Shown here one piece after another: positions 1 through 28,653 of a stretch of 32,000 nt of DNA. Positions within the stretch are counted from its first letter, which is position 1; each line of letters opens with the position of its first letter. Made by a program: the position numbers and the translations under genes. Source of the DNA: Pseudomonas aeruginosa. Lineage in GTDB: Bacteria > Pseudomonadota > Gammaproteobacteria > Pseudomonadales > Pseudomonadaceae. Where the stretch lies: the NCBI RefSeq assembly GCF_001457615.1, contig NZ_LN831024.1, positions 4,710,001 through 4,742,000 of the forward strand, written 5' to 3'. The notes beneath the pieces were generated by a model. The model did not search any database. It worked only from the letters and a program-made list of their open reading frames with translations, and was not told the origin of the DNA.

Positions 1-120
1 TCTGATTATTAAGCTGGGCTAACGAGTGCATCCCCCGCGCAGCGGTTTATCCCGGCGAGCGCAGGGCGGATGATGCTGATCGACGCCGCTCTGCGGCATT
101 TCTCGAACGGAAGGTGCAGC

Positions 121-762: not shown

Positions 763-769
763 AAAGACC

Positions 770-790
770 AGGCGCCCCTCTCGGGCGCCT
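770..790. terminator. Hairpin between convergent genes (possible bidirectional terminator)
   Basis: AGGCGCCC (770-777) pairs perfectly with GGGCGCCT (783-790) around a 5-nt loop. It lies between the stop at 762 and the sdsA1 stop at 797. No clear T-tract follows. Confidence 0.4.
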
Positions 791-796
791 TCGTCG

Positions 797-3790
<2,994 letters not shown>

Positions 3791-3793
3791 GGC

Positions 3794-3982
3794 TCAGCGC
3801 CAGCGAGCGTCGTCGCGGCGCTCCTGCCAGGGACGGTTCCAGTCGCGCCCGCGGTTGTCACGGTCGCGGTCGTGATAGCGCTCGTAGCGGTAGTCGGGAC
3901 GATGCCGGTGGTCGTTGCGGTCGTAGACCACGCAGGCCGACAGCGGCAGGACGAGGATCAGCAGGGAAAGCAAACGACGCAT
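3794..3982 (-). CDS. Small lipoprotein, Arg/Asp/Tyr/His-rich (62 aa)
   Basis: ATG at 3982, preceded by AGGAGG. MRRLLSLLILVLPLSAC is a signal peptide with a lipobox. The mature part is low-complexity R/D/Y/H. Confidence 0.6.
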   Translation of the reverse strand: MRRLLSLLILVLPLSACVVYDRNDHRHRPDYRYERYHDRDRDNRGRDWNRPWQERRDDARWR

Positions 3983-4104
3983 GGCGCCTCCTGTGCGGTT
4001 CCGGCCTCTCCTGCGGATGCGGGAGGATTGCCTGTTCCGGAACCTGCACATCGGACTGCGCGGCGCGCGGGCGGTGCCCGCGGCGAGAGTAAAGCCTGGG
4101 TAAA

Positions 4105-4350
4105 TCAGCCGAGGCTACGCAGGTGCAGGACGCCGAACAGCAGCACCTGGAGGCGCTCCAGCCAAGGTGCCGGGCGCGCCTTGAGACGCCCGTTGAGCAG
4201 CAGGATCTCGGCGGCATGGACCAGCACCAGCACGCCGGACAACAGCAGGATCGGTCGATGCAACTCGCCCAGCGGGTAGGCCAGGTTGACCAGCGCGACG
4301 AGCCAGAACATCGCCAGGGCGCCCTTGGCGAACGACAGAAAATGACTCAT
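4105..4350 (-). CDS. Small integral membrane protein (81 aa, DUF1145-like)
   Basis: ATG at 4350, preceded by GAGGAGG. MSHFLSFAKGALAMFWLVALVNLAY... contains two or three hydrophobic helices. Confidence 0.6.
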   Translation of the reverse strand: MSHFLSFAKGALAMFWLVALVNLAYPLGELHRPILLLSGVLVLVHAAEILLLNGRLKARPAPWLERLQVLLFGVLHLRSLG

Positions 4351-4466
4351 GGGAACCTCCTCGTTTCGGTATCGGCAGAGTGTGCCGAGCAAATGCGCCA
4401 AGAGGGTCCGCACTTTCGACTGGAAAGCACGACGGCGCCCGCAGGCGCCGCCTTTCCTTGCGCACC

Positions 4467-4922
4467 TCAGTTGCGCCAGCGAGGTGTCCCGCCCTGCTGG
4501 CCCTGGTGTCCCGGACGATCCTGCCGACCGTGTTGTTGCCAGCGTTGCGGAGAATGCCCGCGCCATTGCGGCTGGCCGCCGCGCTGCCAGTTGCCCGGAT
4601 GCCGCTCGCCACGATGGGCCGGGCGCGATTCGTGGTAGCGCTGCTGGTAGCGATATTGCTCGCGCCGGTAGTCGCGGTGGCCATCGTAGCGGCGTGGCGC
4701 CGGGTAGTAGCGTTGGTCGTAGTAGCGCGTCGAGTAGTAGCGCCGTTCGCTGCGCCAGCCATCGTCATACACGCGATAGCGCGGCACTTCGTAGGCGTAG
4801 CCGTAGGGCTGGCCGCGATAGTGGCGCCAATCGCCGTCATCGTAGTCGTAGTCATACACCGCGCAGCCACCCAGGCTGGCGAGAAGCAGAAGAAGCGGGA
4901 CTCTCAGGAATGTGCGCCACAT
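4467..4922 (-). CDS. Lipoprotein, Tyr/Arg/Asp/Gln-rich low complexity (151 aa)
   Basis: ATG at 4922, preceded by AGGAGG. MWRTFLRVPLLLLLASLGGC is a signal peptide with a lipobox. The mature region has repeated RYY/DY/QRW motifs. This is the 3' part of track ORF 4467..5630. Confidence 0.6.
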   Translation of the reverse strand: MWRTFLRVPLLLLLASLGGCAVYDYDYDDGDWRHYRGQPYGYAYEVPRYRVYDDGWRSERRYYSTRYYDQRYYPAPRRYDGHRDYRREQYRYQQRYHESRPAHRGERHPGNWQRGGQPQWRGHSPQRWQQHGRQDRPGHQGQQGGTPRWRN

Positions 4923-5017
4923 GGCAGCCTCCTGCGGCCCCGCTGCCGACCGGCCGGACGACCGGCGACGCCGCGAGGCGCGCATACGACGTGAAGACTC
5001 GGGAAATGGAAGTGGGC

Positions 5018-5191
5018 TCAGCACCAGCCTTTCTTGGCGTGGCCCGGAGGACAATGGGGCGGGCCGCCGCGATCGTAGCCGTAGTAGCCATCGTCGAACG
5101 GATCCAGTTCGACGTAGGCGCCCGGCACCCGAACGCTGCAACCGCTCATCAGGAAGGCCGCCAGTAGCAGCCCGAACAATCGCATGACCAT
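5018..5191 (-). CDS. Small lipoprotein (57 aa)
   Basis: Not in the track because it is under 60 aa. My hand translation is MVMRLFGLLLAAFLMSGCSVRVPGAYVELDPFDDGYYGYDRGGPPHCPPGHAKKGWC. AAGGAGA lies 7 nt upstream of the ATG. The lipobox is LMSGC. Confidence 0.45.
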   Translation of the reverse strand: MVMRLFGLLLAAFLMSGCSVRVPGAYVELDPFDDGYYGYDRGGPPHCPPGHAKKGWC

Positions 5192-5429
5192 CAGCATTCT
5201 CCTTCATCGCAGAACGCAGCCGAACCACGCCTGGACAAGATCCCGATGGAGCGGGAAGCCGGTTGCGGCGGTTGCAACCCGGCTGCAATAGAGACCGAAG
5301 GAAAAAACGGAAATTCCCTGAATCCGACCAACGACACGGGCCTCCAGAACGTGACCGCAGCCGGCGTTTCTCGGTAGAGTGCGCGGACCAAGGACTGCCG
5401 GCCCCGCCGGAACCGCTCAAGGAGCATGC

Positions 5430-6506
5430 ATGCAACCCATCGACCGCGCCCAGGCACAGCAGCGCGCCAACGACATCCTGGTATTCCAGCGCGAGCTGCA
5501 ACGCCTCGACCAGGAGCAGGCGTTCCGCCTCGAACCGGCCCAGGCCCGGCAACTCGCCGACTATCACCTGGCCCTGCTGGACAGCTACCGCGACCGTTTC
5601 GACATCGACCACGACCTGCGCAGCCAGCAACTTTCGCTGGGCATGCGGGTAGCCTCGTTCTTCGGCGCCCTGGCCTTCGCCGCCAGCGTGTTCCTGCTGT
5701 TCTATCGCTTCTGGGGCCTGTTCCCCACCGTCGCCCAGGTGGCGATCCTGATCGGCAGCGCCTTCGCCGCGTTCTTCGCCACGCTCTGGGTCCAGGCCAA
5801 GGACGCCTCGGGCTACTTCAGCAAGCTGGCGGCGATGGTCGCGTTCGCCTGCTTCGTCCTCGACCTGACCATGCTCGGGCAGATATTCAACGTCACCCCC
5901 AGCGACCTGGCGCTGGTGCCCTGGGCGCTCTACGCCCTGCTCCTGGCCTACCTGTGCAACGCCCGCCTGCTGCTGGCGGCGGCGATCCTCTGCGTGATGG
6001 GTTTCATCGCCGCGCGCGTCGGCACCTGGGGCGGCGGCTACTGGCTGAGCGTAGGCGAGCGACCGGAGAACTTCTTCCCCGCCGCCGCGCTGATCTTCGC
6101 CGTGCCGCTGTGCTTCGATCAGCGCAACTTCAGCGGCTTCGCCGTGATCTACCGGGTGTTCGCCCTGCTCGGCCTGTTCCTGCCGATGCTGGTGCTGGCC
6201 AACTGGGGCTCAGGCAGCTACCTGGCGTTACCGTCGGCGCTCATCGAGGGGCTCTACCAGGTCGCCGGCTTCGTCGCCGCCGCCCTTGTGATCTGGCTCG
6301 GCGCGCGACGCAACTGGGCGGACGTGAGCAATACCGGGATCACCTTCTTCGTCATCTTCCTCTACACCAAGTTCTTCGACTGGTGGTGGGAAGCGATGCC
6401 GAAGTACCTGTTCTTCCTGGTGCTCGGCCTCAGCGCCCTGCTGATCCTGCTGGTCCTGCGCCGCCTGCGCACGCCCCTGGGCATCGCCGCGAGGACTGAC
6501 GCATGA
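5430..6506 (+). CDS. Multi-pass inner-membrane protein with soluble N-terminal domain (DUF2157-like)
   Basis: Track ORF 5379..6506, with the ATG at 5430 following AAGGAG. About 85 soluble residues are followed by many hydrophobic helices. Confidence 0.75.
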   Translation: MQPIDRAQAQQRANDILVFQRELQRLDQEQAFRLEPAQARQLADYHLALLDSYRDRFDIDHDLRSQQLSLGMRVASFFGALAFAASVFLLFYRFWGLFPTVAQVAILIGSAFAAFFATLWVQAKDASGYFSKLAAMVAFACFVLDLTMLGQIFNVTPSDLALVPWALYALLLAYLCNARLLLAAAILCVMGFIAARVGTWGGGYWLSVGERPENFFPAAALIFAVPLCFDQRNFSGFAVIYRVFALLGLFLPMLVLANWGSGSYLALPSALIEGLYQVAGFVAAALVIWLGARRNWADVSNTGITFFVIFLYTKFFDWWWEAMPKYLFFLVLGLSALLILLVLRRLRTPLGIAARTDA

Positions 6507-7318
6507 ATCGCAACCGTCGCAACGCCCTGATCGCCGGCAGCCTCCTGCTGCTGGCGGCGAACCTGGCCGCCCTCGGTGGCGTCGCCTGGAACCGGTCCGG
6601 CGAGGCCGAAAGCAAGCTGGTGCTCAGCCAGCGCGAGCTCCAGCGCAACTGGTCCTACGGTTTCTGGAGCGAAGAGAACAGTGGCGTCGAACTGCGCCTG
6701 GAGCTTCGCTCGCCGAGCAGCGAGCCGCCCAGTGACCTCGCTCCCCCGCTGCCGCCCGAGCAGATGCGCGCCCTCGGTTTCAGCATCCCGGACGCGCTCG
6801 ACGAAGAGAGCGTACGGCGCTACCGCCGCCAACAGGAAAAACAGGTGCTGCTGGTCCTGGAGCTCGACGGCCCGGCCTATCGCCGCGAAGTACGCCTGGC
6901 CGAGGAGCGCCTGGCCGAGGCCAGCGCCCGCAGCAAGGCCCTGCCCAAGGACGAAATGCTGTCCAGCCAGATGGAAGCCGCTCGCCACCAACTGAAGCAT
7001 GAGCAGGGAGAGGCCAGCCGACTGTTCATCGTCGACGCCGGCCTCGACCTGGCCGCCCTGCGCCAGCGCTACCCCGAGCGCCAGCGCTACGCCATCGTCA
7101 AGGGCCGGGTGCGTCCCTGGTCCGCGGTCGACGAAGGCAGGACGCTGGTCGGCGGCTACATCAGCCGTACCGACCTCGCCGCGATCAACGTGCCACGACA
7201 ATGGCACGCGGTATTCGCCAAGGTCGACGGACAAAACTACCGGCTAGCGCCGCTGGAACTGCACCTCAGCTTCGGCCAGCGCCTGGAGCCCTGGATCACC
7301 AACGCCGTTCGCCGCTGA
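6503..7318 (+). CDS. Membrane-anchored hypothetical protein, translationally coupled to upstream gene
   Basis: Shares an ATGA start/stop overlap with the previous gene. It has an N-terminal anchor, MNRNRRNALIAGSLLLLAANLAALGGVAW. Confidence 0.7.
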   Translation: MNRNRRNALIAGSLLLLAANLAALGGVAWNRSGEAESKLVLSQRELQRNWSYGFWSEENSGVELRLELRSPSSEPPSDLAPPLPPEQMRALGFSIPDALDEESVRRYRRQQEKQVLLVLELDGPAYRREVRLAEERLAEASARSKALPKDEMLSSQMEAARHQLKHEQGEASRLFIVDAGLDLAALRQRYPERQRYAIVKGRVRPWSAVDEGRTLVGGYISRTDLAAINVPRQWHAVFAKVDGQNYRLAPLELHLSFGQRLEPWITNAVRR

Positions 7319-7398
7319 AACGCCCCGCCCGGCGCGCGATGCTTGCATCCGCGCGCCGGGCGCTGCACCCTGGGCACCCGCCAGCCATCCACCGCGCC

Positions 7399-7611
7399 AT
7401 GAACAGCGAAATCGACCCCGGCCGCTGCCCGCTGTGCCAGCAATCCAACCGCTGCACCCTGGCCGATCCCGCTAGCGCCGCCCAGGCTTGCTGGTGCTTC
7501 ACCACGGAAATCAATGCGGCCGCGCTGGAGCGGATTCCCGCCGAGCTGCGCCGCCGTGCCTGCCTCTGCCCGCGCTGCGCGCAACTATTGCCGCCCGACG
7601 CCGACGACTGA
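7399..7611 (+). CDS. Cysteine-rich CWC family protein (70 aa)
   Basis: Internal ATG of track ORF 7201..7611. It contains CPLC...C...CWC...CLCPRC cysteine motifs. Its stop overlaps the next start (TGATG). Confidence 0.6.
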   Translation: MNSEIDPGRCPLCQQSNRCTLADPASAAQACWCFTTEINAAALERIPAELRRRACLCPRCAQLLPPDADD

Positions 7612-8303
7612 TGCGCCTGGACCGCTTCCTCGCCAACCTGCCCGAACTCAGCCGCCGCGACGCGCAGATGCTGATCGCCGGTGGACGCCTGCGCGTGGAC
7701 GGCCAGGTGGTGCGCGACGGCACCCACGAAGTGCGTGTCTTCAGCCGGGTGGAACTGGACGAGCAGCTGCTCCAGGCTGGCAAGCCGGCGCGCTACTACA
7801 TGCTGCATAAACCGATGGGCTGCGTCAGCGCCACCCGCGACCCGCAACACCCGACCGTCCTCGACCTGTTCCCGGAAGACCTGCGCGACGACCTGCACAT
7901 TGGCGGTCGTCTCGACTACAACACCACCGGCCTGATGCTGCTGACCAACGATGGCCAGTGGTCGCGCCGCCTGACCCTGCCGGGCAGCCGGCGCGACAAG
8001 GTCTACTACGTGGAAACCGAGGCGCCCATCGACCAACGCTACGTGGATGCCTTCGCCGCCGGCCTCCACTTCCGCTTCGAAGACCTGGTCACCCTCCCCG
8101 CGCAGCTCGAACCGATCGGCCCACGCTGCGCCCGCCTGACCCTGCACGAAGGCCGCTATCACCAGGTCAAGCGCATGTTCGGCCACTTCGACAACAAGGT
8201 GCTGCGCCTGCACCGCGAGCGCATGGGCGATATTTGTCTCGACCCACAGTTGCCGCCGGGTGCCTGGCGCCCCCTGAATGCTGAAGAAATCTGTTCGGTG
8301 TGA
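7611..8303 (+). CDS. RsuA-family rRNA pseudouridine synthase
   Basis: MRLDRFLANLPELSRRDAQMLIAGGRLRVDG is an S4 domain. The GRLDYNTTGLMLLTNDG catalytic motif and HEGRYHQVKRMF are present. Confidence 0.85.
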   Translation: MRLDRFLANLPELSRRDAQMLIAGGRLRVDGQVVRDGTHEVRVFSRVELDEQLLQAGKPARYYMLHKPMGCVSATRDPQHPTVLDLFPEDLRDDLHIGGRLDYNTTGLMLLTNDGQWSRRLTLPGSRRDKVYYVETEAPIDQRYVDAFAAGLHFRFEDLVTLPAQLEPIGPRCARLTLHEGRYHQVKRMFGHFDNKVLRLHRERMGDICLDPQLPPGAWRPLNAEEICSV

Positions 8304-8438
8304 AACCCCGGCGCCCGCCGCCTGTCCACCGAAAGAGGCCGGACCGCAGGGGTTTGGCCGGCCGTCGCGAGCGACGCTAAGCTGAATGGCATCTGTCGGA
8401 GCGACAGCCTTTCCCGCATGGAGCAAGAGAAAGCGCCA

Positions 8439-9482
8439 ATGAAAAGATCCCTTGCCGTACTGCTGCTGGCCTTCGCCGTCGGCAGCCTCCACGCGGCGCC
8501 CGCCAGCCCAGCGAACGCGCCTTTGCCGCCGGCCGACATCAAGGCGCGGCTGAAGAGCATGAAGCCCGGCGAGTACCTCTGGTACCCGGAGGTTTCCCCG
8601 CAGGGACCAGTGACCATCGTGGTCAGCCTCACCGAACAGAAGGCCTACATCTACCGCAACGGTATCGCCATCGGGGTCAGCACCCTCAGCTCCGGCAAGA
8701 AGGGCCGGGAGACCCCGACCGGAGTGTTCTCGATCCTGCAAAAGAGCGTCGACCACAAGTCCGACCTCTACAACAGCGCGCCCATGCCCTACATGCAGCG
8801 CCTGACCTGGGACGGCATCGCCCTGCACGCCGGCAACCTGCCCGGCTATCCCGCCTCCCACGGCTGCATCCGCCTGCCCATGGCGTTCGCCAAGAAGCTC
8901 TACGGCATCACCGGATTCAGCTCCACCACGGTAATCATTTCCAACGCCAGCAGCGCGCCGAAGGAAGTCGACCACCCCGGCCTGCTGGCACCGACGGTAG
9001 CGGACGGGCGACCGGTGACGCTGCCGGTGGAGCCCGGAGAAATCGCCTGGAACGACCCCGGCGCGGAACGCGGTCCGTTGTCGGTGCTGATCAGCCGCGC
9101 CGACCAGCGCGCCTATGTCTATCGCGGCGGCCAGCGCATCGGCACCGCACCGGTGCAGTTGCCGGCACGCCCGCAAACCGGCATGGCGGTGTTCTCGCTG
9201 CTGGAAAAGCCGACCCCGGAAGAAATCAGCGAGACCTCGCCGAACCTGCGCTGGTCGGTGGTCCAGGTGAGCAACCCGGGACAGGGCCTGACACCCTCCG
9301 AGCAACTGGGCAAGATCCGCATGGACCCGACCTTCGTCCGCGAAATGCTCGGTGCCATGGACGTCGGCAGCACCCTGGTGATCACCGACTGGGCCTCGAC
9401 CCGGGACACCCACAGCGACTCCGATTTCACGGTGATCGCCACGGAAACACCGAACAATCCGACGAAATCGCTTAAAAAGTAG
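8439..9482 (+). CDS. L,D-transpeptidase (YkuD domain), secreted
   Basis: Signal peptide MKRSLAVLLLAFAVGSLHA. The YkuD core TPTGVFSI...HGCIRL contains the catalytic His/Cys motif. Confidence 0.85.
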   Translation: MKRSLAVLLLAFAVGSLHAAPASPANAPLPPADIKARLKSMKPGEYLWYPEVSPQGPVTIVVSLTEQKAYIYRNGIAIGVSTLSSGKKGRETPTGVFSILQKSVDHKSDLYNSAPMPYMQRLTWDGIALHAGNLPGYPASHGCIRLPMAFAKKLYGITGFSSTTVIISNASSAPKEVDHPGLLAPTVADGRPVTLPVEPGEIAWNDPGAERGPLSVLISRADQRAYVYRGGQRIGTAPVQLPARPQTGMAVFSLLEKPTPEEISETSPNLRWSVVQVSNPGQGLTPSEQLGKIRMDPTFVREMLGAMDVGSTLVITDWASTRDTHSDSDFTVIATETPNNPTKSLKK

Positions 9483-9561
9483 TCGGCAAGTTGTTCAAAA
9501 ATCGAGCACAATGCCTCTCATCCGGTAAAAACCACACTGAACCGATGGGAATACTGCTCGT

Positions 9562-10299
9562 ATGCCAACCTTCCTCCGTGCCGCCCTGCGCAGGCTGAGC
9601 CTGGCGGGCGCCACCCTTTGCGCACTGGCCAGCGGGCCGGTATTCGCCATGCCACTTCCCTCCGCCAAGGACCTGCAGAAACTCGCTCCACAGGCCAGCC
9701 TGCCGACCCTCGAACTGGCCCTTACCGCCTATGCCTGCGCGAGTGCCAGCCAGGGCGGCGACAACGGCCTGCTGACGGTGATCGACTACTCGCGGCCGTC
9801 ACGCGACAAGCGTCTCTGGGTATTCGACCTGAAGACCCGCAAGCTGCTCTTCGAAGAGTGGGTGACCCACGGCAAGAACAGCGGCGATGACCTTGCCACC
9901 TCCTTCTCCAACCGGCCGAACAGCTACCAGTCGTCGATCGGGCTGTTCCAGACCGGCCAGCTCTATACCGGCAAGCACGGCCAGTCGCTGCGCCTGGTTG
10001 GCCTGGAGCCGGGCTTCAACGACAAGAGCGAAGAACGCGCCATCGTCATGCATTCCGCTGCCTACGCCGATCCCAGGGTGGTTCCCGGGCTCGGTCGCCT
10101 GGGCCGCAGCCAGGGCTGCCCTGCGGTACGCCCGGCCGTGGCGGCCCGGCTGATCAACACCCTCAAGCGCGGCAGCTACGTGTTCGCCTACTATCCGCAG
10201 CCGAAGTGGCTGGAGACCTCGCGCTTCCTCGCCCCGCAGAGCTGCGCCGTGGCACGTGCGGCGCGTACGCCGGAAGTCATCGCCAGCCTGCTCAAATGA
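9562..10299 (+). CDS. Murein L,D-transpeptidase catalytic-domain family protein (YkuD_2-like), secreted
   Basis: Signal peptide ...LCALASGPVFA. VTHGKNSG...SIGLF...VMHSAAY...GRSQGCPAV resembles the L,D-TPase-like family. Confidence 0.7.
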   Translation: MPTFLRAALRRLSLAGATLCALASGPVFAMPLPSAKDLQKLAPQASLPTLELALTAYACASASQGGDNGLLTVIDYSRPSRDKRLWVFDLKTRKLLFEEWVTHGKNSGDDLATSFSNRPNSYQSSIGLFQTGQLYTGKHGQSLRLVGLEPGFNDKSEERAIVMHSAAYADPRVVPGLGRLGRSQGCPAVRPAVAARLINTLKRGSYVFAYYPQPKWLETSRFLAPQSCAVARAARTPEVIASLLK

Positions 10300-10434
10300 A
10301 CCGCCGGGGCGGCGGCCGCGCCGTCCCTTTCCTTCCCGGCATCCCGAAATCGCAGCATCGGTACTTGCCTCGCGGCATTTCGTCGGATTCCAGCCCCCCT
10401 TCCCCCATCCAAAAGCGAAACAGGGCTTGCAGTC

Positions 10435-10450
10435 CGGCACGCCGGCTGCT
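10435..10450 (+). promoter_or_regulatory. Candidate sigma-54 (-24/-12) promoter upstream of phaG
   Basis: CGGCACGCCGGCTGCT has GG at 10436-10437 and GC at 10448-10449, with a 10-nt spacing. This matches the core of TGGCACG-N4-TTGCW. It would give a leader of about 290 nt. Confidence 0.3.
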
Positions 10451-10750
10451 TAACTGACGCTCACGTTGTGACTGACCAGTCACAAACGACTTCCAAGAAA
10501 GCCCGCGTGACTGCCCGCGCTTCGGCGCCGGCCTTTCCTGCCCGGCCAATAGCCGCTTCGCCAAAATCCGAGAGGATTTCGGACGCTCTCTATTTGCCTG
10601 TAAGTCGTTGAAAATCAAAAGTTTATCAAATCCATCCGAATGACATTCAACTGTCATTGGGAGGCGCTTTCATCTGCCCATGAGCATTTTGTATTCGCCG
10701 CGACAAGCAGGTCGCCGCGTTCCCATCGAACGATTCCAGGAGGAAGCGAC

Positions 10751-11653
10751 ATGAGGCCGGAAACAGCCATCATCGAGATCCACGGGCAATACAGGATTCA
10801 CACCGAGTTCTACGGCAACCCCGCGGCGCAGCAGACCATCATCCTGGTCAACGGCTCGCTGTCGACCACAGCGTCCTTCGCCCAGACCGTGAAGTACCTG
10901 CAGCCGCATTACAACGTGGTGCTCTACGACCAGCCGTATGCCGGCCAGTCCAAACCCCATAACGAAAACCGCACGCCGATCAGCAAGGAGTGCGAGGCCA
11001 GGATCCTGCTGGAACTGATCGAACGCTTCCGTGCCGACGTAGTGATGTCGTTCTCGTGGGGCGGCGTCGCCACCCTGCTGGCCCTGGCGCAGCGTCCCGG
11101 ACGGATCCGCAGGGCGGTGGTCAACTCATTCTCGCCTCAGCTCAACCCGGCCATGCTCGACTACCTGCATCGCGGCCTCGACTACCTCGCCGCCTGCGAT
11201 CGCACCCAGGTCGGCAACCTGGTCAACGAAACCATCGGCCGCTACCTGCCACAGTTGTTCAAGCGCTACAACTTCCGCCACGTCAGCAGCCTGGACGAGC
11301 ACGAATACCACCAGATGCACTTCCATATCCGCGAAGTGCTGCGCCTGAACGCCGATAGCTATACCGAGAGCTTCGCCGGCATCGAGATCCCGGTGCTGTT
11401 CATGAACGGCGAGCTGGACATCTACACCACGCCCCACGAAGCCCGCCAGTTCGGCCAACTGATCCGCGGCGCGGAATTCCACACCATCCGCAATGCCGGC
11501 CACTTCATCGACGTCGAGCACAAGGCCGCCTGGCAACAGACCCAGGACGCCCTGCTGGCCTTCCTCCGCCCGCAGCGCACGCAGCCGCTCAACCCGATCT
11601 ACCGCCCCCAGCCCAACGGCGCCAGCGTCCCCCTCGCCGCCCTCGCCAGCTAA
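10751..11653 (+). CDS. phaG: 3-hydroxyacyl-ACP:CoA transacylase PhaG (RhlA paralogue, alpha/beta hydrolase)
   Basis: ATG at 10751 after AGGAGG. MRPETAIIEIHGQYRIHTEFYGNP...ILVNGSLSTTASFAQT...MSFSWGG is recognisably PhaG (PA0730) and is collinear with RhlA. Confidence 0.9.
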   Translation: MRPETAIIEIHGQYRIHTEFYGNPAAQQTIILVNGSLSTTASFAQTVKYLQPHYNVVLYDQPYAGQSKPHNENRTPISKECEARILLELIERFRADVVMSFSWGGVATLLALAQRPGRIRRAVVNSFSPQLNPAMLDYLHRGLDYLAACDRTQVGNLVNETIGRYLPQLFKRYNFRHVSSLDEHEYHQMHFHIREVLRLNADSYTESFAGIEIPVLFMNGELDIYTTPHEARQFGQLIRGAEFHTIRNAGHFIDVEHKAAWQQTQDALLAFLRPQRTQPLNPIYRPQPNGASVPLAALAS

Positions 11654-11783
11654 CCGCCACCGCCACGGGGAGCCCCGCTCCCCTGGCGGAAAAACCCAGC
11701 GAAATCAACAAAAACCCCGCCCCGGGCTTCACCTGCCGCCGCGCATCTGGTAAAAAGGCGCCCTGGCCGCAAAAGCCATCCGA

Positions 11784-11857
11784 GCGGGCGTCGTATAATG
11801 GCATTACCTGAGCTTCCCAAGCTCATGACGAGGGTTCGATTCCCTTCGCCCGCTCCA
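11784..11857 (+). tRNA. tRNA-Gly (anticodon UCC), encoded CCA
   Basis: Hand-folded cloverleaf. Acceptor stem GCGGGCG/CGCCCGC. Anticodon arm TGAGC-TTCCCAA-GCTCA. T arm GAGGG-TTCGATT-CCCTT. Total 74 nt. Close to E. coli glyT. Confidence 0.95.
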
Positions 11858-12037
11858 GTATTTCCGGGCCTTCCAGCCGCCCAGGCGCATCGAGCGCAAG
11901 TGCTGGGGGCCGTTTCGGGGGCCGTTTGCGTGCGTCACTGGCAAGTGCGCGCGGAGAGTGAACAAACGGCAGAGAGCCAGGTTCCAATGCCCGCCCCGCC
12001 TGGCAACCCCTCGTTTTATGTTGACCCATCGAAATTG

Positions 12038-12311
12038 GGTAATTTTGGTAATTCGTTTTCAGAACTGCCATTTCATCCTTTAAATTCAATAGCTTACAGA
12101 AGCTTTTTAAAGGTAATAATAGGGTAATTTTGAGGTAATCGAATTACCTTTGTGCTGGGTAAGCTCGCCGATTTATGAACCCCTTATAAATCAATGGCTT
12201 ACAAAAAAATTACCTTTCCAATTACCCTAAATTACCTTTCAAGGTAATTGCTGAAAGCCAGTAACCACGCGGCATACAGCCCGCTTAGAACCCCAAATTA
12301 CCGAAATTACC
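12038..12311. repeat. Array of 12 GGTAAT(T)/AATTACC heptamers in both orientations
   Basis: Plus orientation at 12038, 12047, 12112, 12123, 12134 and 12243. Minus orientation at 12142, 12208, 12220, 12230, 12296 and 12305. The extended 11-mer AAATTACCTTT occurs 3 times exactly. The region is AT-rich and non-coding. Confidence 0.85.
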
Positions 12312-12491
12312 TTTTTCCGAGGGGTCAACAGAAAAACGCCCCCAGGAAGGCCCCTTGCCGCCCTCAGAAAAGGGCCTCTGGTGCAGGGATTCGCAGGGAT
12401 TTCCGAGTTCGGAAATCGGAAGGTAGCGCCCAGCCTGGGCCGTTGGCGGCGCTGTGCAGAAGTGCAGAAAAAGAGGTCTATTTAGAGCGGA

Positions 12492-12510
12492 GGCGTGGCG
12501 GGGGGACGAC
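12492..12510. other. Candidate cos (cohesive-end) site
   Basis: GGCGTGGCGGGGGGACGAC. Its first 12 nt equal the 186 cohesive end as I recall it (GGCGTGGCGGGGAAAGCAT); the P2 end is GGCGAGGCGGGGAAAGCAC. Short tandem repeats and a palindrome flank it. Confidence 0.45.
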
Positions 12511-12645
12511 TGCGCGCGCCGAGCGGAATTGCGCAAAAACCATTCATTTTTCCTTTAAAATGGCATTTCTCGATAGAGAAAGCTGATTGGCGCCAACCGG
12601 TGGTTGTAGGCGAGATTTGAGCTGTGATGGGTGACAGGAGGTCCC

Positions 12646-13371
12646 ATGCCGTTAAGCGCTGAGGAGCAGGCAATTTGCGATGGCGCCATCGCGTTCGCCA
12701 GAGCGAACAAGAAGTCCATTGCAAAGCGGCTAACAAGCCCCCAGATATATGCTCGAGAGGAAAACCCCGTGTCAGTTTTCATGGCCGGGTCCCCTGGAGC
12801 AGGCAAGACAGAAGCCTCGATCGAACTCCTGTCTCAGTTCGACGAGATCGGGTCAAAGGTTCTACGGATCGATCCAGACGAATTGCGGTCTGAGTTCGAA
12901 GGGTACACGGGAGGGAATTCCTGGCTGTTCCAACCTGCCGTCTCTATTTTGGTAGAGAAGATTCATGATTTGGCCCTGGATCAGCGACAGTCATTTCTCT
13001 TGGACGGCACGCTAGCCAACTACGAGATAGCAGAGCGGAACATCCAGCGATCCTTGCGCAAGGGCAGGACTGTGCTAATCCTGTACGTGTACCAGCGGCC
13101 TGACCTTGCATGGGAATTTGTCCAAGCTCGAGAGCGAGTAGAGGGAAGAAAAATCCCGATCGAAGAGTTTGTGAGACAGTATTTCGCGGCGAGAGACGTC
13201 GTGAATCGGCTCAAGCAACGCTTCGGAGGGTCGATAGAGGTGGATCTGCTGCTGAAAAACAACGACGGATCCCACCGTGTTTACGAGGCGAACATAGACC
13301 GGATTGACAGCCATGTCCCCGAAACCTATGATCGCGCGTCCCTTGAGCAGATGCTTTTACAGCGAGGCTAA
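12646..13371 (+). CDS. Zeta-toxin-like P-loop kinase (prophage cargo)
   Basis: ATG at 12646 after AGGAGG. Walker A is FMAGSPGAGKTE. RIDPDELRSEF and LLDGTLAN are collinear with the IDGDxFRxxH and EGTLR motifs of zeta/PezT. G+C looks lower than the flanks by eye. Confidence 0.75.
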   Translation: MPLSAEEQAICDGAIAFARANKKSIAKRLTSPQIYAREENPVSVFMAGSPGAGKTEASIELLSQFDEIGSKVLRIDPDELRSEFEGYTGGNSWLFQPAVSILVEKIHDLALDQRQSFLLDGTLANYEIAERNIQRSLRKGRTVLILYVYQRPDLAWEFVQARERVEGRKIPIEEFVRQYFAARDVVNRLKQRFGGSIEVDLLLKNNDGSHRVYEANIDRIDSHVPETYDRASLEQMLLQRG

Positions 13372-16469: not shown

Positions 16470-16490
16470 TTGTAGCTCCGCGCTCTACAA
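16470..16490. promoter_or_regulatory. Late-promoter dyad TTGTAG-N9-CTACAA (Ogr-type activator site candidate)
   Basis: Perfect 6-bp inverted arms in the divergent gpP/gpO intergenic region. The same dyad type recurs at 23467 and 28633. Confidence 0.5.
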
Positions 16491-21849: not shown

Positions 21850-21946
21850 AGTCGAGCGTATCGGCCTGGCCTGGGCCGAGTGCGCCGCGAAGGTCGACAT
21901 GATCATCCGCACCCAAGGGGCTGCTACCCATGAACAAGCCCGATAG
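21674..21946 (+). CDS. o-spanin lipoprotein (Rz1/LysC-like), overlapping Rz in another frame
   Basis: MTMNPIASGLTSLCLMLLVGC is a lipobox signal. The gene starts inside Rz and runs past its stop into the gpR start. Confidence 0.7.
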   Translation: MTMNPIASGLTSLCLMLLVGCNSAPLSPERPLIISGCPAVTPCSLESAAPKDNGGLQTEVERIGLAWAECAAKVDMIIRTQGAATHEQAR

Positions 21947-22466
21947 TCTGAAGGCACATCTGCTCGCCGCCGTGCCGGAACTCAGGAACAACGGCGACCG
22001 CCTGGTGATATTCATCGACAACGGCCGGGTCCGCAGCACCTCGGCCGAGAGCCTGTCCTTCGAATACGCCTATGACCTGCAGGTGATCCTCACCGACTTC
22101 GCCGGGCACCCCGACAGCGTGTTTCTGCCGCTGCTCGGCTGGCTGCTGGTGAACCAGTCGGATCTGCTGGCCAACCTCACCAAGGTGCAGGACGGCATCA
22201 CCTTCGAGGCCGACATGCTCGACCGCAGCAAGGTCGACCTCGGTATCGTCCTGCCACTGACCGAGCGTGTCGTCGTCAAGCGTCGCGAGGATGGCCGCTA
22301 CGATGTGAGTCACCCGGAAGAGCCCCAGCTCACCGAGGCCATCGAGGTCGATGGGCCGATGCAGATGCTCGCCAACGGCGAGCTGCTGGCCGAGTGGACG
22401 CCGCCGACGCCTACCGAGGCCGTCATGCTCGAGACGCCGCAGATCAGGCGCCCGGCCAATGGCTGA
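21930..22466 (+). CDS. Tail completion protein (P2 gpR family)
   Basis: MNKPDSLKAHLLAAVPELRNNGDRLVIFIDNG...SLSFEYAYDLQVILTDFAG is collinear with P2 gpR. Confidence 0.88.
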   Translation: MNKPDSLKAHLLAAVPELRNNGDRLVIFIDNGRVRSTSAESLSFEYAYDLQVILTDFAGHPDSVFLPLLGWLLVNQSDLLANLTKVQDGITFEADMLDRSKVDLGIVLPLTERVVVKRREDGRYDVSHPEEPQLTEAIEVDGPMQMLANGELLAEWTPPTPTEAVMLETPQIRRPANG

Positions 22467-22917
22467 CAGCCTCCAGGTTCTGGAAGACTGGGCAGGGCCG
22501 ATTCTCCGCGCCCTCGAGCCAGGCCCTCGTGCTGCCCTCGCGCGTTCGCTCGCCCGCGATCTACGGCGCAGCCAGCAGAAGCGCGTAATGGCACAGCGCA
22601 ACCCCGACGGAAGCGCCTACGAGCCACGCAAGAAGCGCGAACTGCGCGGCAAACAAGGCCGTATTCGGCGCAAGATCAAGATGTTCCAGAAGCTGCGCAC
22701 GGTGCGCTATCTGCGCGCCAAGGGCGACGCCCAGGCGATTACGGTTTCCTTCGCTGGTCGGATCGCACGCATCGCGCGGGTTCACCAGTACGGGCTGAGG
22801 GACCGTGCTGAGCCTGGCGCTCCTGAAGTCCAATATGCGCAGCGCTCCCTTCTAGGGTTCACCGCCGCGGATCTAGACAGCATCCGCAGCGGTGTCCTAA
22901 AGCATCTCCCCCCCTGA
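22459..22917 (+). CDS. Virion morphogenesis / tail completion protein (P2 gpS family)
   Basis: Internal ATG at 22459 of track ORF 22351..22917, overlapping the gpR stop. Position and size match gpS. Confidence 0.8.
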   Translation: MADSLQVLEDWAGPILRALEPGPRAALARSLARDLRRSQQKRVMAQRNPDGSAYEPRKKRELRGKQGRIRRKIKMFQKLRTVRYLRAKGDAQAITVSFAGRIARIARVHQYGLRDRAEPGAPEVQYAQRSLLGFTAADLDSIRSGVLKHLPP

Positions 22918-22926
22918 CATCCAACA

Positions 22927-23355
22927 TCAATCCCACTGCCGATGGCGCTCGGCAAATTTCAGTACGTGTTCGTTGTAAGGCTTCCGCTTGAAGCGAGTAC
23001 GGTGAATGTACTGGCGGCCAGTCTCGCGACTCACAGCCATGGAGCTGATCTCATACTCCCCCTGTCCTTGCTCCCTGAGGTTCAGGAAGGTGTCACTCGA
23101 AACGACATCCAACGGCGCTTGGTTATCGTCAACAACCACAAGCAGCTCGCGCTCATCAGTCGGAGTGATGCCATGGGTGATCTTGTAAACAAAGAGCTCC
23201 CAGGACGCTTCCGGCATTTCGCGCTGGCCGGACTCCCAGAGTTCCCAGGTGCGTTTGGAGACATGTACCAGCTGCGCAGCTTCCGCTGTGCTAGCTCCGA
23301 GAACTGATCGCGCTTTACGCGCTAACTCTCCCCTTTTCGCAGAATCGCTGTTCAT
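22927..23355 (-). CDS. Reverse-oriented cargo gene: XRE/YdiL-like HTH N-domain + unknown C-domain (142 aa)
   Basis: ATG at 23355, with AGGAGG 6 nt upstream. The HTH region is STAEAAQLVHVSKRTWELWESGQREMPEASWELF. I recognise no family for the C-terminal ~80 aa. G+C looks lower by eye. It is inserted between the gpS and gpV late operons. Confidence 0.7.
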   Translation of the reverse strand: MNSDSAKRGELARKARSVLGASTAEAAQLVHVSKRTWELWESGQREMPEASWELFVYKITHGITPTDERELLVVVDDNQAPLDVVSSDTFLNLREQGQGEYEISSMAVSRETGRQYIHRTRFKRKPYNEHVLKFAERHRQWD

Positions 23356-23457
23356 AAAAGCCCTCCTGGGCATCATTGAATAACCGCTCAAAACAAGCGG
23401 ACAGAGAAAAAAATACGCCATAACCCCAATGCTGCGCAAGAGCGAATTCTTGTGAAT

Positions 23458-23487
23458 ATATAACCTTTGTACGCAAGGCTCGTACAA
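23458..23487 (-). promoter_or_regulatory. Candidate sigma-70 promoter for the reverse-oriented cargo gene
   Basis: On the minus strand, TTGTAC (23487-23482), then 18 nt, then TTATAT (23463-23458). The -35 lies inside the 23467-23487 dyad. Confidence 0.35.
23467..23487. promoter_or_regulatory. Late-promoter dyad TTGTAC-N9-GTACAA upstream of gpV
   Basis: Perfect inverted arms. Same architecture as the dyads at 16470 and 28633. Its centre is 56 bp upstream of the gpV ATG. Confidence 0.5.
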
Positions 23488-23532
23488 GCCCCGCTGCCCG
23501 CATCCTTTCCCATAACAGCACATGCTTAGCGC

Positions 23533-24105
23533 ATGGCTGACTTTGCGACCCTCTCCCGCATGATCGAGAACCTGATCCGCCTCGGCACCATCGCCGCGGT
23601 GGACCATGCCGCGCAGCGCGTCCGTGTGTTGACTGGTGACCTACTGACCGGCTGGCTGCCCTGGGCATCGCCGCGGGCCGGCGCCGACCGCGAATGGAAC
23701 GCCCCCACCCTGAACGAGCAAGTACTGCTCTTCAGCCCATCCGGGCAGACCGCCAATGGCGTGGTCCTGACCGGCTTGTTCAGTGACCTGATCCCGCCCA
23801 ACGGCGACCGCGACGCCCTGCATCGCACCACCTACCGCGACGGCGCGGTTATCGAGTACGACAGCGCAGCCCACCACCTGCGCGCAGTTCTTCCCGCCGG
23901 CGGTACCACCGAGCTCATCAGCGACGGCGGCATCCGCATCGTCGGCGACATCACCCACCAGGGCGACTACATCCAGACCGGCAACCAGACCGTCACCGGC
24001 AAGGTCACCGTGAGCGTCGACGTGATCGCCAAGGGCATCAGCCTGGTCGGTCATACCCACGGCGGCGTCATGCCGGGCGGCGCTACGACGGGGAAACCGC
24101 AATGA
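23533..24105 (+). CDS. Baseplate assembly protein / spike (P2 gpV family)
   Basis: MADFATLSRMIENLIRLGTIAAVD...RVRV..G.L.T.WLPW is the gpV signature. The C-terminal ...GHTHGGV motif is present. Confidence 0.9.
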   Translation: MADFATLSRMIENLIRLGTIAAVDHAAQRVRVLTGDLLTGWLPWASPRAGADREWNAPTLNEQVLLFSPSGQTANGVVLTGLFSDLIPPNGDRDALHRTTYRDGAVIEYDSAAHHLRAVLPAGGTTELISDGGIRIVGDITHQGDYIQTGNQTVTGKVTVSVDVIAKGISLVGHTHGGVMPGGATTGKPQ

Positions 24106-24446
24106 ACGCCCACACCGGCGGCGCCATCGACCGCTTGGCACACATCCGCCAGTCGATCGCCGACATCCTCACCACTCGCATTGGTAGCCGCGTCATGCGG
24201 CGCGAATACGGCAGCCAGTTGCCGGAGCTGATCGATGCTCCGTTCAACGACACCACCCGCCTGCAGGTCTATGCCGCCACCGCCATGGCCCTCATGCGCT
24301 GGGAGCCGCGCATCCGCCTGAGCCGTGTCCAGATCACCGGCCAGAACCTGGCCGGCCAGGTGCTCATGGAGATTAACGCCACCCTGGTGGACAGCAACGA
24401 ACCGCACAACCTGAGCATCCCCCTGCAGATGGGCGCCAGCGCATGA
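24102..24446 (+). CDS. Baseplate protein (P2 gpW / GPW_gp25 family)
   Basis: ATGA overlap with gpV. SIADILTTRIGSRVMRREYGSQLPELID is the gp25-like motif. Confidence 0.9.
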   Translation: MNAHTGGAIDRLAHIRQSIADILTTRIGSRVMRREYGSQLPELIDAPFNDTTRLQVYAATAMALMRWEPRIRLSRVQITGQNLAGQVLMEINATLVDSNEPHNLSIPLQMGASA

Positions 24447-25357
24447 CAACGAACTTCGTCGCCATCGACCTCAGCCAGTTGCCACCACCACACGCGGTGG
24501 AGCAGCTGGACTACGAGCAGATACTCGCCGAGCGCAAGGCCTACGCCATCAGCCTCTGGCCGGAGGATCAGCAGGCGGAAATCTCCGCCCGCCTCGCCCT
24601 GGAGTCCGAACCGCTGACCAAGCTGCTCGAGGAAAACGCATACCGCGAAATGCTCTGGCGCCAGCGGGTCAACGAGGCGGCTCTCGCCAACATGCTGGCC
24701 AGCGCCCAGGGCGCCGACCTCGACCAGCTCGCCGCGAACTACAACGTCAAGCGCCTGGTCATCCAGCCCGGAGATCCGTCGAAGGTGCCGCCCGTACCGG
24801 AACTGCTCGAGTCCGACGACAGCCTGCGCGAGCGGGCGCAGATGGCCTGGGAAGGCCTCAGCACCGCGGGACCGCGTAACAGCTACATCTTCCACGCCCG
24901 CGCCGCCGACGGTCGCGTCGGCGATGCCTCAGCCGTCAGCCCATCACCTGCCGTTGTCGTGGTGACGGTGCAGGCCGCCCAGGGCAACGGCAGCGCCCCG
25001 GCGGACCTGCTGGCCATCGTCGACGCCTACCTCAACGATGCCGACCGTCGCCCCGTCGCTGATCGCCTGACAGTCCAGTCCGCCCAAGTGCTCGAGTACC
25101 GTGTCGACGCGACGCTCTACCTGGCCACCATCGGCCCGGAATCCGAGCCGATACTCGATGCCGCCCGGGCCCGTTTGACGGCATACGTCCATCAGCGTCG
25201 ACGCCTGGGCATGGAGGTGTCCGAGTCGGCGGTGCATGCGGCCTTGCACGTAGAAGGCGTGCGCAAAGTCACGCTCAGCAACTGGTCGGACATCGCCGCT
25301 ACACCGGCCCAGGCGCCCTACTGCACCGGAATTACGCTGACGCTGGGGGATGAGTGA
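24443..25357 (+). CDS. Baseplate wedge protein (P2 gpJ family)
   Basis: ATGA overlap with gpW, 304 aa, and gpJ-like sequence and position. Confidence 0.88.
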   Translation: MTTNFVAIDLSQLPPPHAVEQLDYEQILAERKAYAISLWPEDQQAEISARLALESEPLTKLLEENAYREMLWRQRVNEAALANMLASAQGADLDQLAANYNVKRLVIQPGDPSKVPPVPELLESDDSLRERAQMAWEGLSTAGPRNSYIFHARAADGRVGDASAVSPSPAVVVVTVQAAQGNGSAPADLLAIVDAYLNDADRRPVADRLTVQSAQVLEYRVDATLYLATIGPESEPILDAARARLTAYVHQRRRLGMEVSESAVHAALHVEGVRKVTLSNWSDIAATPAQAPYCTGITLTLGDE

Positions 25358-25893
25358 TGCCCAGCTTGCTCCCACGCAACGCCACCGAGCTGGAGCGCCT
25401 GGCCGCCGAAGCCCTGGCGCAGATCGAGCGGGTACCGATCCCATTGCGCCAACTGTGGAACCCCAGCACCTGCCCGGTCGCCCTTCTGCCGTACCTGGCC
25501 TGGGCGTTCTCCGTCGATCGCTGGGACAGCACCTGGCCGGAGCGTGTGAAGCGCCAGGTCATTCGGGATGCCTACCTCGTCCACTCCCACAAGGGAACCT
25601 TGAGCGCCCTGCGCCGCGTGGTCGAACCCGTCGGCTCGCTGACCGACATCCTCGAGTGGTGGCAACAGACCCCCGCCGGCGTCCCCGGCACCTTCGAAAT
25701 CACCGTCGACGTCAGCGACAACGGTCTCGACGAGGAGACCGTGCTCGAGCTCGAGCGCCTGCTCGACGACGTGCGCCCAGTCAGCCGACACCTGACCCGC
25801 CTGGACCTGCGCATCACGCCGGACATCCTGGCCCGCCACGGCCTGGCGACGATCGACGGCGACACCCTGGAAATCAGCCCCTGGAAGCAGTGA
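25357..25893 (+). CDS. Baseplate/tail protein (P2 gpI family)
   Basis: The ATG at 25357 overlaps the gpJ stop; a GTG at 25354 is the alternative. LWNPSTCPVALLPYLAWAFSVDRWD is collinear with P2 gpI. Confidence 0.88.
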   Translation: MPSLLPRNATELERLAAEALAQIERVPIPLRQLWNPSTCPVALLPYLAWAFSVDRWDSTWPERVKRQVIRDAYLVHSHKGTLSALRRVVEPVGSLTDILEWWQQTPAGVPGTFEITVDVSDNGLDEETVLELERLLDDVRPVSRHLTRLDLRITPDILARHGLATIDGDTLEISPWKQ

Positions 25894-28191: not shown

Positions 28192-28638
28192 ATGTTCTTT
28201 TATTGCCCGAAGACTGGCGGCTTTTACTCTCCAGAGGTACATGGTGAACAAATGCCAGCGGAATCGGAGCTTTGGCCTCTGACGGATGAAGAGTACGAGG
28301 CACTGCTCGACGCTCAGGGCCAGGGACTGTTGATCGTCGCTGGCAAGGATGGACAGCCGGTCGCCACGCCACCACCACCTCTCGGAGACGAGGCTCTGGC
28401 AACGATCGAGCGCGATTGGCGCGACCGCCAGCTCGACGACACCGACGCCCTGGTCGCACGTCACCGCGACGAGCTCGAGGTTGGTACCACGACGCTCAGC
28501 ACTGAGCAGTACCAGGCGCTGCAGGCGTACCGCCGCCAACTGCGCGACTGGCCGGAGTCTGGTGAGTTTCCGCTCGCAGAACACCGGCCGGCCGCACCGG
28601 ACTGGCTCGAAGCCCTCTTCGCAGATGGCATCTTGTAG
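28192..28638 (+). CDS. Tail fibre assembly chaperone (P2 gpG family)
   Basis: ATG at 28192 after GAGGTGG; the track start at 28180 is a TTG. MFFYCPKTGGFYSPE... is typical of gpG-type chaperones. Confidence 0.85.
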   Translation: MFFYCPKTGGFYSPEVHGEQMPAESELWPLTDEEYEALLDAQGQGLLIVAGKDGQPVATPPPPLGDEALATIERDWRDRQLDDTDALVARHRDELEVGTTTLSTEQYQALQAYRRQLRDWPESGEFPLAEHRPAAPDWLEALFADGIL

Positions 28639-28653
28639 CTTCACGCCGTACAA
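28633..28653. promoter_or_regulatory. Late-promoter dyad TTGTAG-N9-GTACAA upstream of sheath operon
   Basis: Its arms match the dyads at 16470 and 23467. It overlaps the gpG stop codon. Its centre is 86 bp upstream of the sheath ATG. Confidence 0.5.

Follow-up and report, generated by a model that had tools for sequence, protein, structure and literature searches.

An antisense gene for an Aca10-class helix-turn-helix protein as cargo at the S/V junction of a phiCTX-like Pseudomonas aeruginosa prophage

In the 32,000-nucleotide stretch of the Pseudomonas aeruginosa chromosome analysed here (RefSeq assembly GCF_001457615.1, contig NZ_LN831024.1, positions 4,710,001 to 4,742,000; the window), a phiCTX-like prophage carries a minus-strand gene between its late genes for the tail completion protein gpS and the baseplate spike gpV. 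The gene had been singled out earlier in a reading of the DNA without database searches (the sequence-only reading). Judged from its distribution among related phages, this cargo gene is a non-structural accessory gene in an established cargo slot, the S/V junction. Its product joins a helix-turn-helix (HTH) domain, related to that of the repressor Aca10, to a second domain without a described family, and the gene is preceded by a promoter region that is conserved among its homologues. We place just on the probable side the reading of the whole package as a self-promoted, probably autorepressed 550-bp cassette with a role in conflict between mobile elements. Coordinates of the features discussed below are collected in Table 1.

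The S/V junction as a cargo slot

From 21900 to 25400 the window is 97 per cent identical to Pseudomonas phage Sirocco, and outside the S/V gap it is 93-97 per cent identical to phiCTX, BR319a, Dobby, and D14A, all of which belong to the genus Citexvirus of the family Peduoviridae. Sirocco and one IMG/VR contig have the same HTH gene in the gap (96 per cent identity). In D14A the slot is empty, with the stop codon of S only 3 nucleotides from the dyad of the V promoter (pV), and it is against this empty site that the cassette of the window was measured. The slot of phiCTX and Dobby holds orf15, a plus-strand gene for 242 amino acids, and that of BR319a holds a DUF2971 gene (locus L003, 1674-2438) with a match to PDC-S31, a candidate single-gene defence system in PADLOC (expectation value [E] = 2e-28). 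P2 also has a gene in this position, for the nonessential protein Orf30 (antisense, 261 amino acids). Neither phiCTX orf15 nor P2 Orf30 has a match in PADLOC. Among close relatives the slot therefore exists in at least four states (empty, or filled by one of three unrelated genes), which makes the S/V junction of phiCTX-like phages a swap site.

These comparisons correct one claim of the sequence-only reading and uphold another. It had held that neither P2 nor phiCTX has a gene at this place, which is contradicted by Orf30 and orf15, and its claim of novelty fails because the junction is an established cargo slot. It had also taken the gene for a non-structural accessory gene and proposed a survey of presence and absence at the junction. 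The comparison with close relatives agrees with the assignment: the gene is found in Sirocco, is missing from D14A, and is replaced in phiCTX, Dobby, and BR319a. As in phage morons, the gene is absent or replaced in close relatives with syntenic flanks, and its base composition is unlike that of the phage backbone.

In a diverged phiCTX-like phage, the slot is filled by a homologue with 65 per cent identity (protein P0009) that points the same way. The R and S proteins of this phage are 60 and 73 per cent identical to those encoded in the window, and its DNA is ~76 per cent identical. The tie of the HTH gene to the S/V slot is therefore old in one sub-lineage. No repeats that would flank the cassette as a sign of transposition were found in the window. 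Accessory and defence hotspots within the late genes have been reported from a survey of 1511 P2-like prophages (bioRxiv 10.64898/2026.02.27.708500). Neither of the two papers on P2 hotspots names orf30, gpS, or gpV, and the Sirocco paper has nothing on the cargo protein.

The variation at the slot extends into the neighbouring gene. A hairpin within the 3' end of the gene for gpS is present only in the window and in Sirocco, being absent from D14A, phiCTX, and a diverged relative (locus L010), and the 3' end of this gene appears to have been exchanged together with the cassette. No canonical terminator follows the cargo gene; there is just this hairpin, which may end or stabilize the antisense transcript.

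A gene under purifying selection in both halves

Flanked by gpS, which stops at 22917, and gpV, which starts at 23533, the cargo gene converges with S, the two stop codons being 9 nucleotides apart. Over 22800-23600 the G+C content is 52-58 per cent, versus 65-69 per cent on either side. The open reading frame (ORF) of 22927-23355 confirms the minus-strand gene for 142 amino acids that the sequence-only reading had placed in the S/V gap, and its perfect AGGAGG ribosome-binding site (at 23367-23362) and its lower G+C content were likewise borne out.

Ten close homologues, with identities of 45-99 per cent, can be aligned to the product over its full length. In pairwise comparisons with homologues, the proportion of nonsynonymous differences (pN) is 0.11-0.25 and that of synonymous differences (pS) 0.64-0.93, which is saturated. 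Where the ratio of nonsynonymous to synonymous substitution rates (dN/dS) could be computed, it is 0.08-0.14 and similar for residues 1-62 and 63-142. By these substitution patterns, the cargo gene is a real gene under strong purifying selection in both halves.

Conservation among the homologues begins at the methionine encoded at 23355, and longer models of the gene (a 226-amino-acid ORF in the window and the 164-amino-acid NCBI protein P0002) were rejected as over-extended for this reason. The annotation of Sirocco (OR683410, locus L001) cuts the HTH gene at 2525-3101 to 114 amino acids, which looks wrong. The same annotation places a 62-amino-acid 'hypothetical protein' over both the pV activator site and the conserved promoter, which also looks wrong. 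Two database gene models are thus corrected, the truncated one of Sirocco and the over-extended one of NCBI.

An Aca10-class HTH domain

The closest known relative of the N-terminal domain is Aca10, an anti-CRISPR-associated repressor from Pseudomonas citronellolis whose structure is 7XI5 (PMC9410881). In a BLASTP comparison the cargo protein is 45 per cent identical to Aca10 over 58 amino acids, which is essentially all of Aca10, and a Foldseek search superposed the AlphaFold model on 7XI5 with a root-mean-square deviation of 0.7 A (46 per cent identity). When the family profile was searched against the Protein Data Bank (PDB) with hmmsearch, 7XI5 was matched with E = 7e-17, Aca2 with 5e-8, and HigA2 with 7e-7. 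In Aca10, R34 and R44 contact DNA and E52 lies in the dimer interface (PMC9410881). The corresponding residues of the cargo protein, R35, R45, and E53, show little or no variation among the close homologues. Based on this homology, the N-terminal ~60 amino acids are an HTH domain of the Aca10/Aca2 class that keeps the DNA-contact and dimerization residues of Aca10.

Among the family databases, Pfam returns only sub-threshold matches to HTH_31 and Aca2_YdiL; the latter (PF08965) scores 12.8 bits, with a gathering threshold of 23.8, and covers residues 16-49 only. The best NCBIfam match is VC1465/XafT (NF040522; E = 2e-7), with 31.2 bits versus a cutoff of 70 and an alignment confined to profile positions 2-44 of 111. 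Together, the Pfam, profile, and Foldseek matches confirm the XRE-type, YdiL/Aca2-like N-terminus proposed in the sequence-only reading.

A C-terminal domain without a described family

With a 73-sequence alignment, AlphaFold2 modelled the cargo protein at a mean predicted local distance difference test (pLDDT) score of 95, and of 94-98 for residues 70-140. The model has four helices, followed by beta-strands at residues 71-75, 81-86, 90-97, 100-108, and 115-123 and a final helix at 129-138. Residues 64-142 match no Pfam family and have no sequence relative in PDB, whether searched as a single sequence or as a profile, in line with the statement of the sequence-only reading that the last ~80 amino acids were unrecognized. 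As modelled, they form a confidently folded beta-plus-helix domain without a described family.

Family-wide, the C-terminal residues F122, N128, and W141 are near-invariant, and no catalytic or membrane signature is visible in the domain. Foldseek searches of PDB and BFVD with the full model returned only HTH proteins. A poorer first model, in which the HTH was misfolded, gave weak matches to PTB/PH domains (E = 0.06-0.4, probability <= 0.54). W141 stands at the end of the chain, directly after the last modelled helix, and the pattern recalls PH-like folds, which we treat as a lead and not as an assignment. The remote-homology and Foldseek check that had been proposed for the protein has thus succeeded for the HTH, which it assigns to the Aca10 class, and has returned only weak PTB/PH-like fold matches for the C-terminal domain.

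An exhaustive profile search collected 835 cluster representatives at E <= 1e-3, most of them matching in the HTH only and about 70 over the full length. The full-length members fall into a class of 135-160 amino acids and a class of 215-240 amino acids with a helical C-terminal extension. In the long form (proteins P0035, P0050, P0166, and others), the extension comprises ~85 amino acids with a conserved NP-x-L-x-ELK motif, and this form is found in Zoogloea, Pseudomonas, Ralstonia, Burkholderia, Xanthomonas, and Stenotrophomonas. Six apparent matches to stand-alone C-terminal-domain proteins were rejected, since every one of them starts at Met47, a conserved internal methionine, and seems to be a truncated gene call. 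Among the sequences examined, the C-terminal domain therefore never occurs apart from this HTH.

A conserved promoter region with an operator-like palindrome

Upstream of the homologues there is a common layout, TCGCTnTTGCGA, the palindrome TCGC-N4-GCGA including a TTGCGA -35 hexamer, and then GAnTAT 17 nucleotides on. An exact TCGCTNTTGCGM occurs once per locus, 84-91 nucleotides upstream of the ATG, in the window (23445-23434) and in loci L006-L014 and L020. At least six independent lineages are represented, with no other context in common and with saturated synonymous sites; the upstream element is therefore under selection. Within the window TCGCTNTTGCGM has a single exact match, and its three one-mismatch matches are no more than expected by chance. 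By comparison of upstream regions, the gene carries its own conserved promoter region, which travels with it into unrelated contexts.

A strict scan of 22700-23700 for sigma-70 promoters and terminators found nothing, and the promoter of the window, TTGCGC-N17-GTATTT (23439-23411), is recognized only through the comparison with homologues. The candidate sigma-70 promoter of the sequence-only reading is therefore retained in part: a strict consensus scan does not return one, and the homologues point to a weak one. The promoter element lies 79-90 nucleotides before the ATG, with no ORF in between.

The more distant homologues at loci L015, L020, L026, and L029 have a related 17-bp palindrome, TGCGAAA-N3-TTTCGCA, between -35 and -10, and at L020 and L029 there are three alternating half-sites. 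A further TGCGA abuts the -10 in many homologue loci. The arrangement of these repeats hints that TTCGC/GCGAA is the recognized half-site. Most loci also have a hairpin in the 5' untranslated region (5'-UTR), which is indistinguishable from shuffled sequence (z = -0.1 to -1.9) and was rejected as a conserved RNA element on that ground.

The neighbouring dyad belongs to the late promoter pV

The sequence-only reading had suggested a dyad at 23467-23487 as a binding target of the HTH protein. This dyad is kept in D14A and BR319a, both of which are without the HTH gene. Its centre is 56 nucleotides before the ATG of V, and in the P2 record the activator site is centred ~55 nucleotides before the transcription start site of pV, which is the first base of V. 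The looser pattern TGT-N13-ACA has four matches in the window, of which three share TGTA...TACA (TGTA-N11-TACA). These three precede O (16471-16489), V (23468-23486), and the FI sheath gene (28634-28652), and we take their positions to be those of the P2 late promoters PO, PV, and PF, on the basis of established P2 biology and the annotation of the P2 record. The fourth match (9492-9510) lies in host DNA and is probably due to chance. Because the dyad is conserved in phages that lack the gene, fits the geometry of P2 pV, and recurs before O and FI, we reject it as the operator of the HTH protein. By its sequence and placement it is the Ogr-type late-activator site of pV.

Genomic contexts of the homologues

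Homologues of the cargo gene occur in contexts that have no neighbour gene of any kind in common. Besides the S/V slot of two phiCTX-like lineages, one homologue lies antisense inside another viral contig, adjoining a weak terminase-small-subunit-like gene (Pfam E 1.3e-4), and others are co-directional with their neighbours in phage-like contigs of 165-287 kb. Further homologues are found on a conjugative Pantoea plasmid, near genes for a KAP NTPase, an integrase, and a DUF2726 protein; in an integrase-bearing island with dynamin-like GTPases and a WYL regulator; next to a large helicase operon in Rhodanobacter; next to a WYL/WCX regulator; and in an island with DUF4238, a domain that protects against T7 (PMC9122126). 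Genes for the long form stand beside NERD and ImmA/IrrE genes in Zoogloea and beside those for IS66 TnpB and an MNT-type nucleotidyltransferase in P. syringae. Because these contexts are unrelated and no neighbour is conserved, the mobile unit is one gene plus its promoter.

The homologue of Bergeriella denitrificans (locus L029) is bracketed by inverted Neisseria-type DNA uptake sequences (ATGCCGTCTGAA), an arrangement that suggests acquisition by transformation. A profile scan of the genome contigs with the alignment of close homologues found nothing; a second, more divergent alignment is unsuited to locus searches.

None of the homologue contexts has a conserved partner ORF upstream, in agreement with the sequence-only reading, which had found no small upstream ORF that could be an anti-CRISPR (Acr) partner. 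The one candidate, a 62-amino-acid ORF in Sirocco that corresponds to ORFs of 41 and 117 amino acids in the window, was rejected as an Acr partner because it spans the pV activator site and the promoter and has no counterpart in the homologue contexts.

Other features of the window

Host chromosome makes up the leftmost ~12 kb of the window. This flank (1-12000) encodes an alkyl sulfatase (797-2857), a YkuD L,D-transpeptidase (9562-10299), and an alpha/beta hydrolase (10640-11653), and the left boundary of the prophage lies roughly between 11.7 and 13.6 kb. The terminase, scaffold, sheath, and other late genes of the prophage were confirmed by Pfam. A gene of the Zeta-toxin family (12631-13371; Pfam E = 3e-41), preceded by a small ORF (12248-12586), adjoins the portal and terminase genes at the prophage's left end, and together with this ORF it may form a second cargo module, of toxin-antitoxin type. 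In phiCTX, this end carries ctx.

Table 1. Positions of the cargo gene, its parts, and adjoining features in the window.
Feature	Position	Strand	Remarks
Cargo cassette	22918..23467		550 bp, from gpS stop to pV activator site; measured against the empty D14A site
Cargo coding sequence	22927..23355	-	143-codon ORF, 142 amino acids plus stop; Aca10-like HTH fused to undescribed C-terminal domain
C-terminal domain, residues 66-142	22930..23160	-	predicted five beta-strands plus C-terminal helix
N-terminal HTH, residues 1-62	23170..23355	-	XRE/Aca2-class; Aca10 similarity
Shine-Dalgarno AGGAGG	23362..23367	-	6 nucleotides before ATG; read from sequence
5'-UTR stem-loop CCGCTTGTTTTGAGCGG	23384..23400	-	weak evidence; homologues have hairpins of other sequence in the same place
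Candidate -10 GTATTT	23411..23416	-	from anchored upstream comparison; homologues have GAnTAT 17 nucleotides after -35
Palindromic element TCGCTCTTGCGC (TCGC-N4-GCG)	23434..23445	-	includes -35 TTGCGC (23439-23434); candidate autoregulatory operator
TGTAC-N9-GTACA dyad TGTACGCAAGGCTCGTACA	23468..23486	+	Ogr-type late-promoter activator site of pV; cassette boundary, not part of cassette
gpS (tail completion)	22459..22917	+	convergent left neighbour; last ~20 codons vary between cassette variants
Hairpin, 13-bp arms	22860..22894		inside gpS 3' end (last ~20 codons), 33 nucleotides past cargo stop; z = -2.7; no U-tract follows
gpV (baseplate spike)	23533..24105	+	right neighbour; first gene of V operon

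A probable role in mobile-element conflict and its alternatives

If the gene is a self-promoted, autorepressed conflict cassette, it would be the entire payload of the 550 bp in the S/V slot of a phiCTX-like (Citexvirus) P. aeruginosa prophage. Its product would dimerize, bind TCGC/GCGA half-sites over its own -35, and repress its own transcription in a putative negative autoregulation. Expression in the lysogen would be low, steady, and sigma-70-driven, independent of the adjacent Ogr-activated late promoters. The C-terminal domain would be a partner- or ligand-binding module that either couples DNA binding to a signal or binds a foreign or host protein. This extra domain is most likely the functional output, because Aca10, with its 65 amino acids, already dimerizes, binds DNA, and recognizes an inverted repeat overlapping its own promoter (PMC9410881). 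The role would lie in conflict between mobile elements (defence or counter-defence) and not in phage morphogenesis, since the gene recurs in phages, on a conjugative plasmid, and in defence-type islands without a fixed partner.

Several points weigh against this account. The promoter of the window is weak, with a -35 that scores 3/6 and a poor -10, and was missed by the strict consensus scan. The right arm of its palindrome is GCGC, not GCGA, and the conserved element could be only a promoter and not an operator. Two homologues show no link to conflict: one stands in a co-directional run of a large phage-like contig and is without the motif, and that of Bergeriella denitrificans (L029, 5805-6381) is alone between the housekeeping genes rnhB and lpxB. 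The association with defence islands is guilt by association, and in PADLOC-DB v2 the cargo protein has no significant match, only one at noise level (E = 0.044).

A more specific form of the conflict-cassette reading is a minimal self-regulating module that joins an Aca10-type autorepressor to a small PH-like effector of a new kind, which would directly neutralize a component of host defence or a protein of an invading phage. We put this forward tentatively, as possible and not as likely. Such a module would travel as a single gene between phages, plasmids, and islands, and even into bare chromosomal sites.

Among the alternatives, the one that survives best, though we think it unlikely, is single-gene defence or superinfection exclusion, in which the protein made in the lysogen would block heterologous phages, by repressing their early promoters or by binding a phage protein with its C-terminal domain. 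It would fit the candidate defence gene in the same slot of BR319a, the defence-type genes that adjoin homologues, the documented hotspots within P2 late genes (bioRxiv 10.64898/2026.02.27.708500), and an antisense, self-promoted layout suited to expression in the lysogen. A known defence system is nonetheless disfavoured because PADLOC has no match for the protein. Nor does the C-terminal domain show an enzymatic or membrane signature, its only near-invariant residues being the three named above, and no foreign target site was identified.

Less likely again, and in our view doubtful, is that the protein serves anti-defence and regulates itself, with an Aca10-type autorepressor and an inhibitor domain in one chain, in the manner of AcrIIA1 or AcrIF24. 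Aca10, the nearest relative of the HTH, controls acrIC6/acrIC7 in Pseudomonas; the operator-like palindrome covers the promoter as in acr-aca operons; the payload would be fused and not a separate gene, in keeping with the lack of a conserved partner; and the family is patchy and found on mobile elements. On the other side, the C-terminal domain is unlike any solved protein, Acrs included, the candidate operator differs from the Aca10 repeat IR2, and some homologues stand in chromosomal, non-mobile contexts. Anti-defence genes were found, moreover, in only 28 of the 1511 P2-like prophages surveyed (bioRxiv 10.64898/2026.02.27.708500). Beside defence and anti-defence, plain trans-regulation is a further possible output of the protein.

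Two further explanations fare worse. That the protein regulates late or lysis genes of this prophage itself, for instance through damping of pV or antisense interference with the O operon, is improbable. The gene stands back-to-back with the pV activator site, ~30 bp away, converges with gpS, and keeps its slot in the diverged relative, but such control is disfavoured by the absence or replacement of the gene in close relatives with identical late promoters and by the occurrence of homologues outside phages; within the window, too, the motif matches exactly only at the gene's own promoter. Least probable, to the point that we would be surprised by it, is an orphan antitoxin or a remnant of a toxin-antitoxin or Xer-activation (XafT-type) module: the HTH resembles those of the antitoxins HigA2 and MqsA, and VC1465/XafT is its best NCBIfam match, but an antitoxin is disfavoured because no context has a toxin-like neighbour (gpS and gpV in the window, mutually unrelated genes elsewhere), XafT because the match is far below the cutoff (31 bits versus 70) and limited to the HTH, and a decaying remnant is at odds with the strong constraint on both domains.

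If the C-terminal domain is an effector, the family would be a compact new one of self-regulated defence or anti-defence proteins. The gene occurs in clinically relevant P. aeruginosa prophages, the near-identical phage Sirocco having come from a cystic-fibrosis isolate, and one 429-bp gene with a defined promoter and a candidate operator offers a genetic handle.

Comparison with known systems

Aca10 is the nearest known system. The two proteins share 45 per cent identity over the N-terminal 58 amino acids, a 0.7 A superposition, the residues R34, R44, and E52, and a palindrome over the gene's own promoter. They differ in that Aca10 is a single domain of 65 amino acids encoded downstream of acrIC7-acrIC6, whereas the cargo protein has 142 amino acids with an extra domain of 80 amino acids and no acr-like ORF upstream of its gene. 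The Aca10 repeat IR2, ATACGCTCATTGAGCGTAT, is also unlike the cargo palindrome TCGC-N4-GCGA.

Aca2/YdiL (PF08965) belongs to the same HTH subclass, with the motif R-x-W-x2-W-E-x-G, and 18 of the 73 family members touch PF08965; however, only the HTH part aligns, and the C-terminal domain aligns nowhere with Aca2. With XafT/VC1465 (NF040522), the best NCBIfam match, the cargo protein likewise shares the HTH only, at a score far below the cutoff.

AcrIIA1 and AcrIF24 are encoded on phages and prophages by single genes that join an autorepressing HTH to a second functional domain. The cargo gene resembles them in joining, within one gene on a prophage, an HTH to a second domain; it differs in that its product showed no sequence similarity to any solved protein outside the HTH.

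P2 Orf30, phiCTX orf15, and the DUF2971 protein of BR319a resemble the cargo gene in their slot and as nonessential cargo, and Orf30 also in its antisense orientation. Their products are unrelated to the cargo protein, are of 240-260 amino acids, and have no HTH. Set beside these systems, the HTH cargo is an Aca-class HTH regulator carried as a phage moron, and it belongs to a well-delimited, uncharacterized family.

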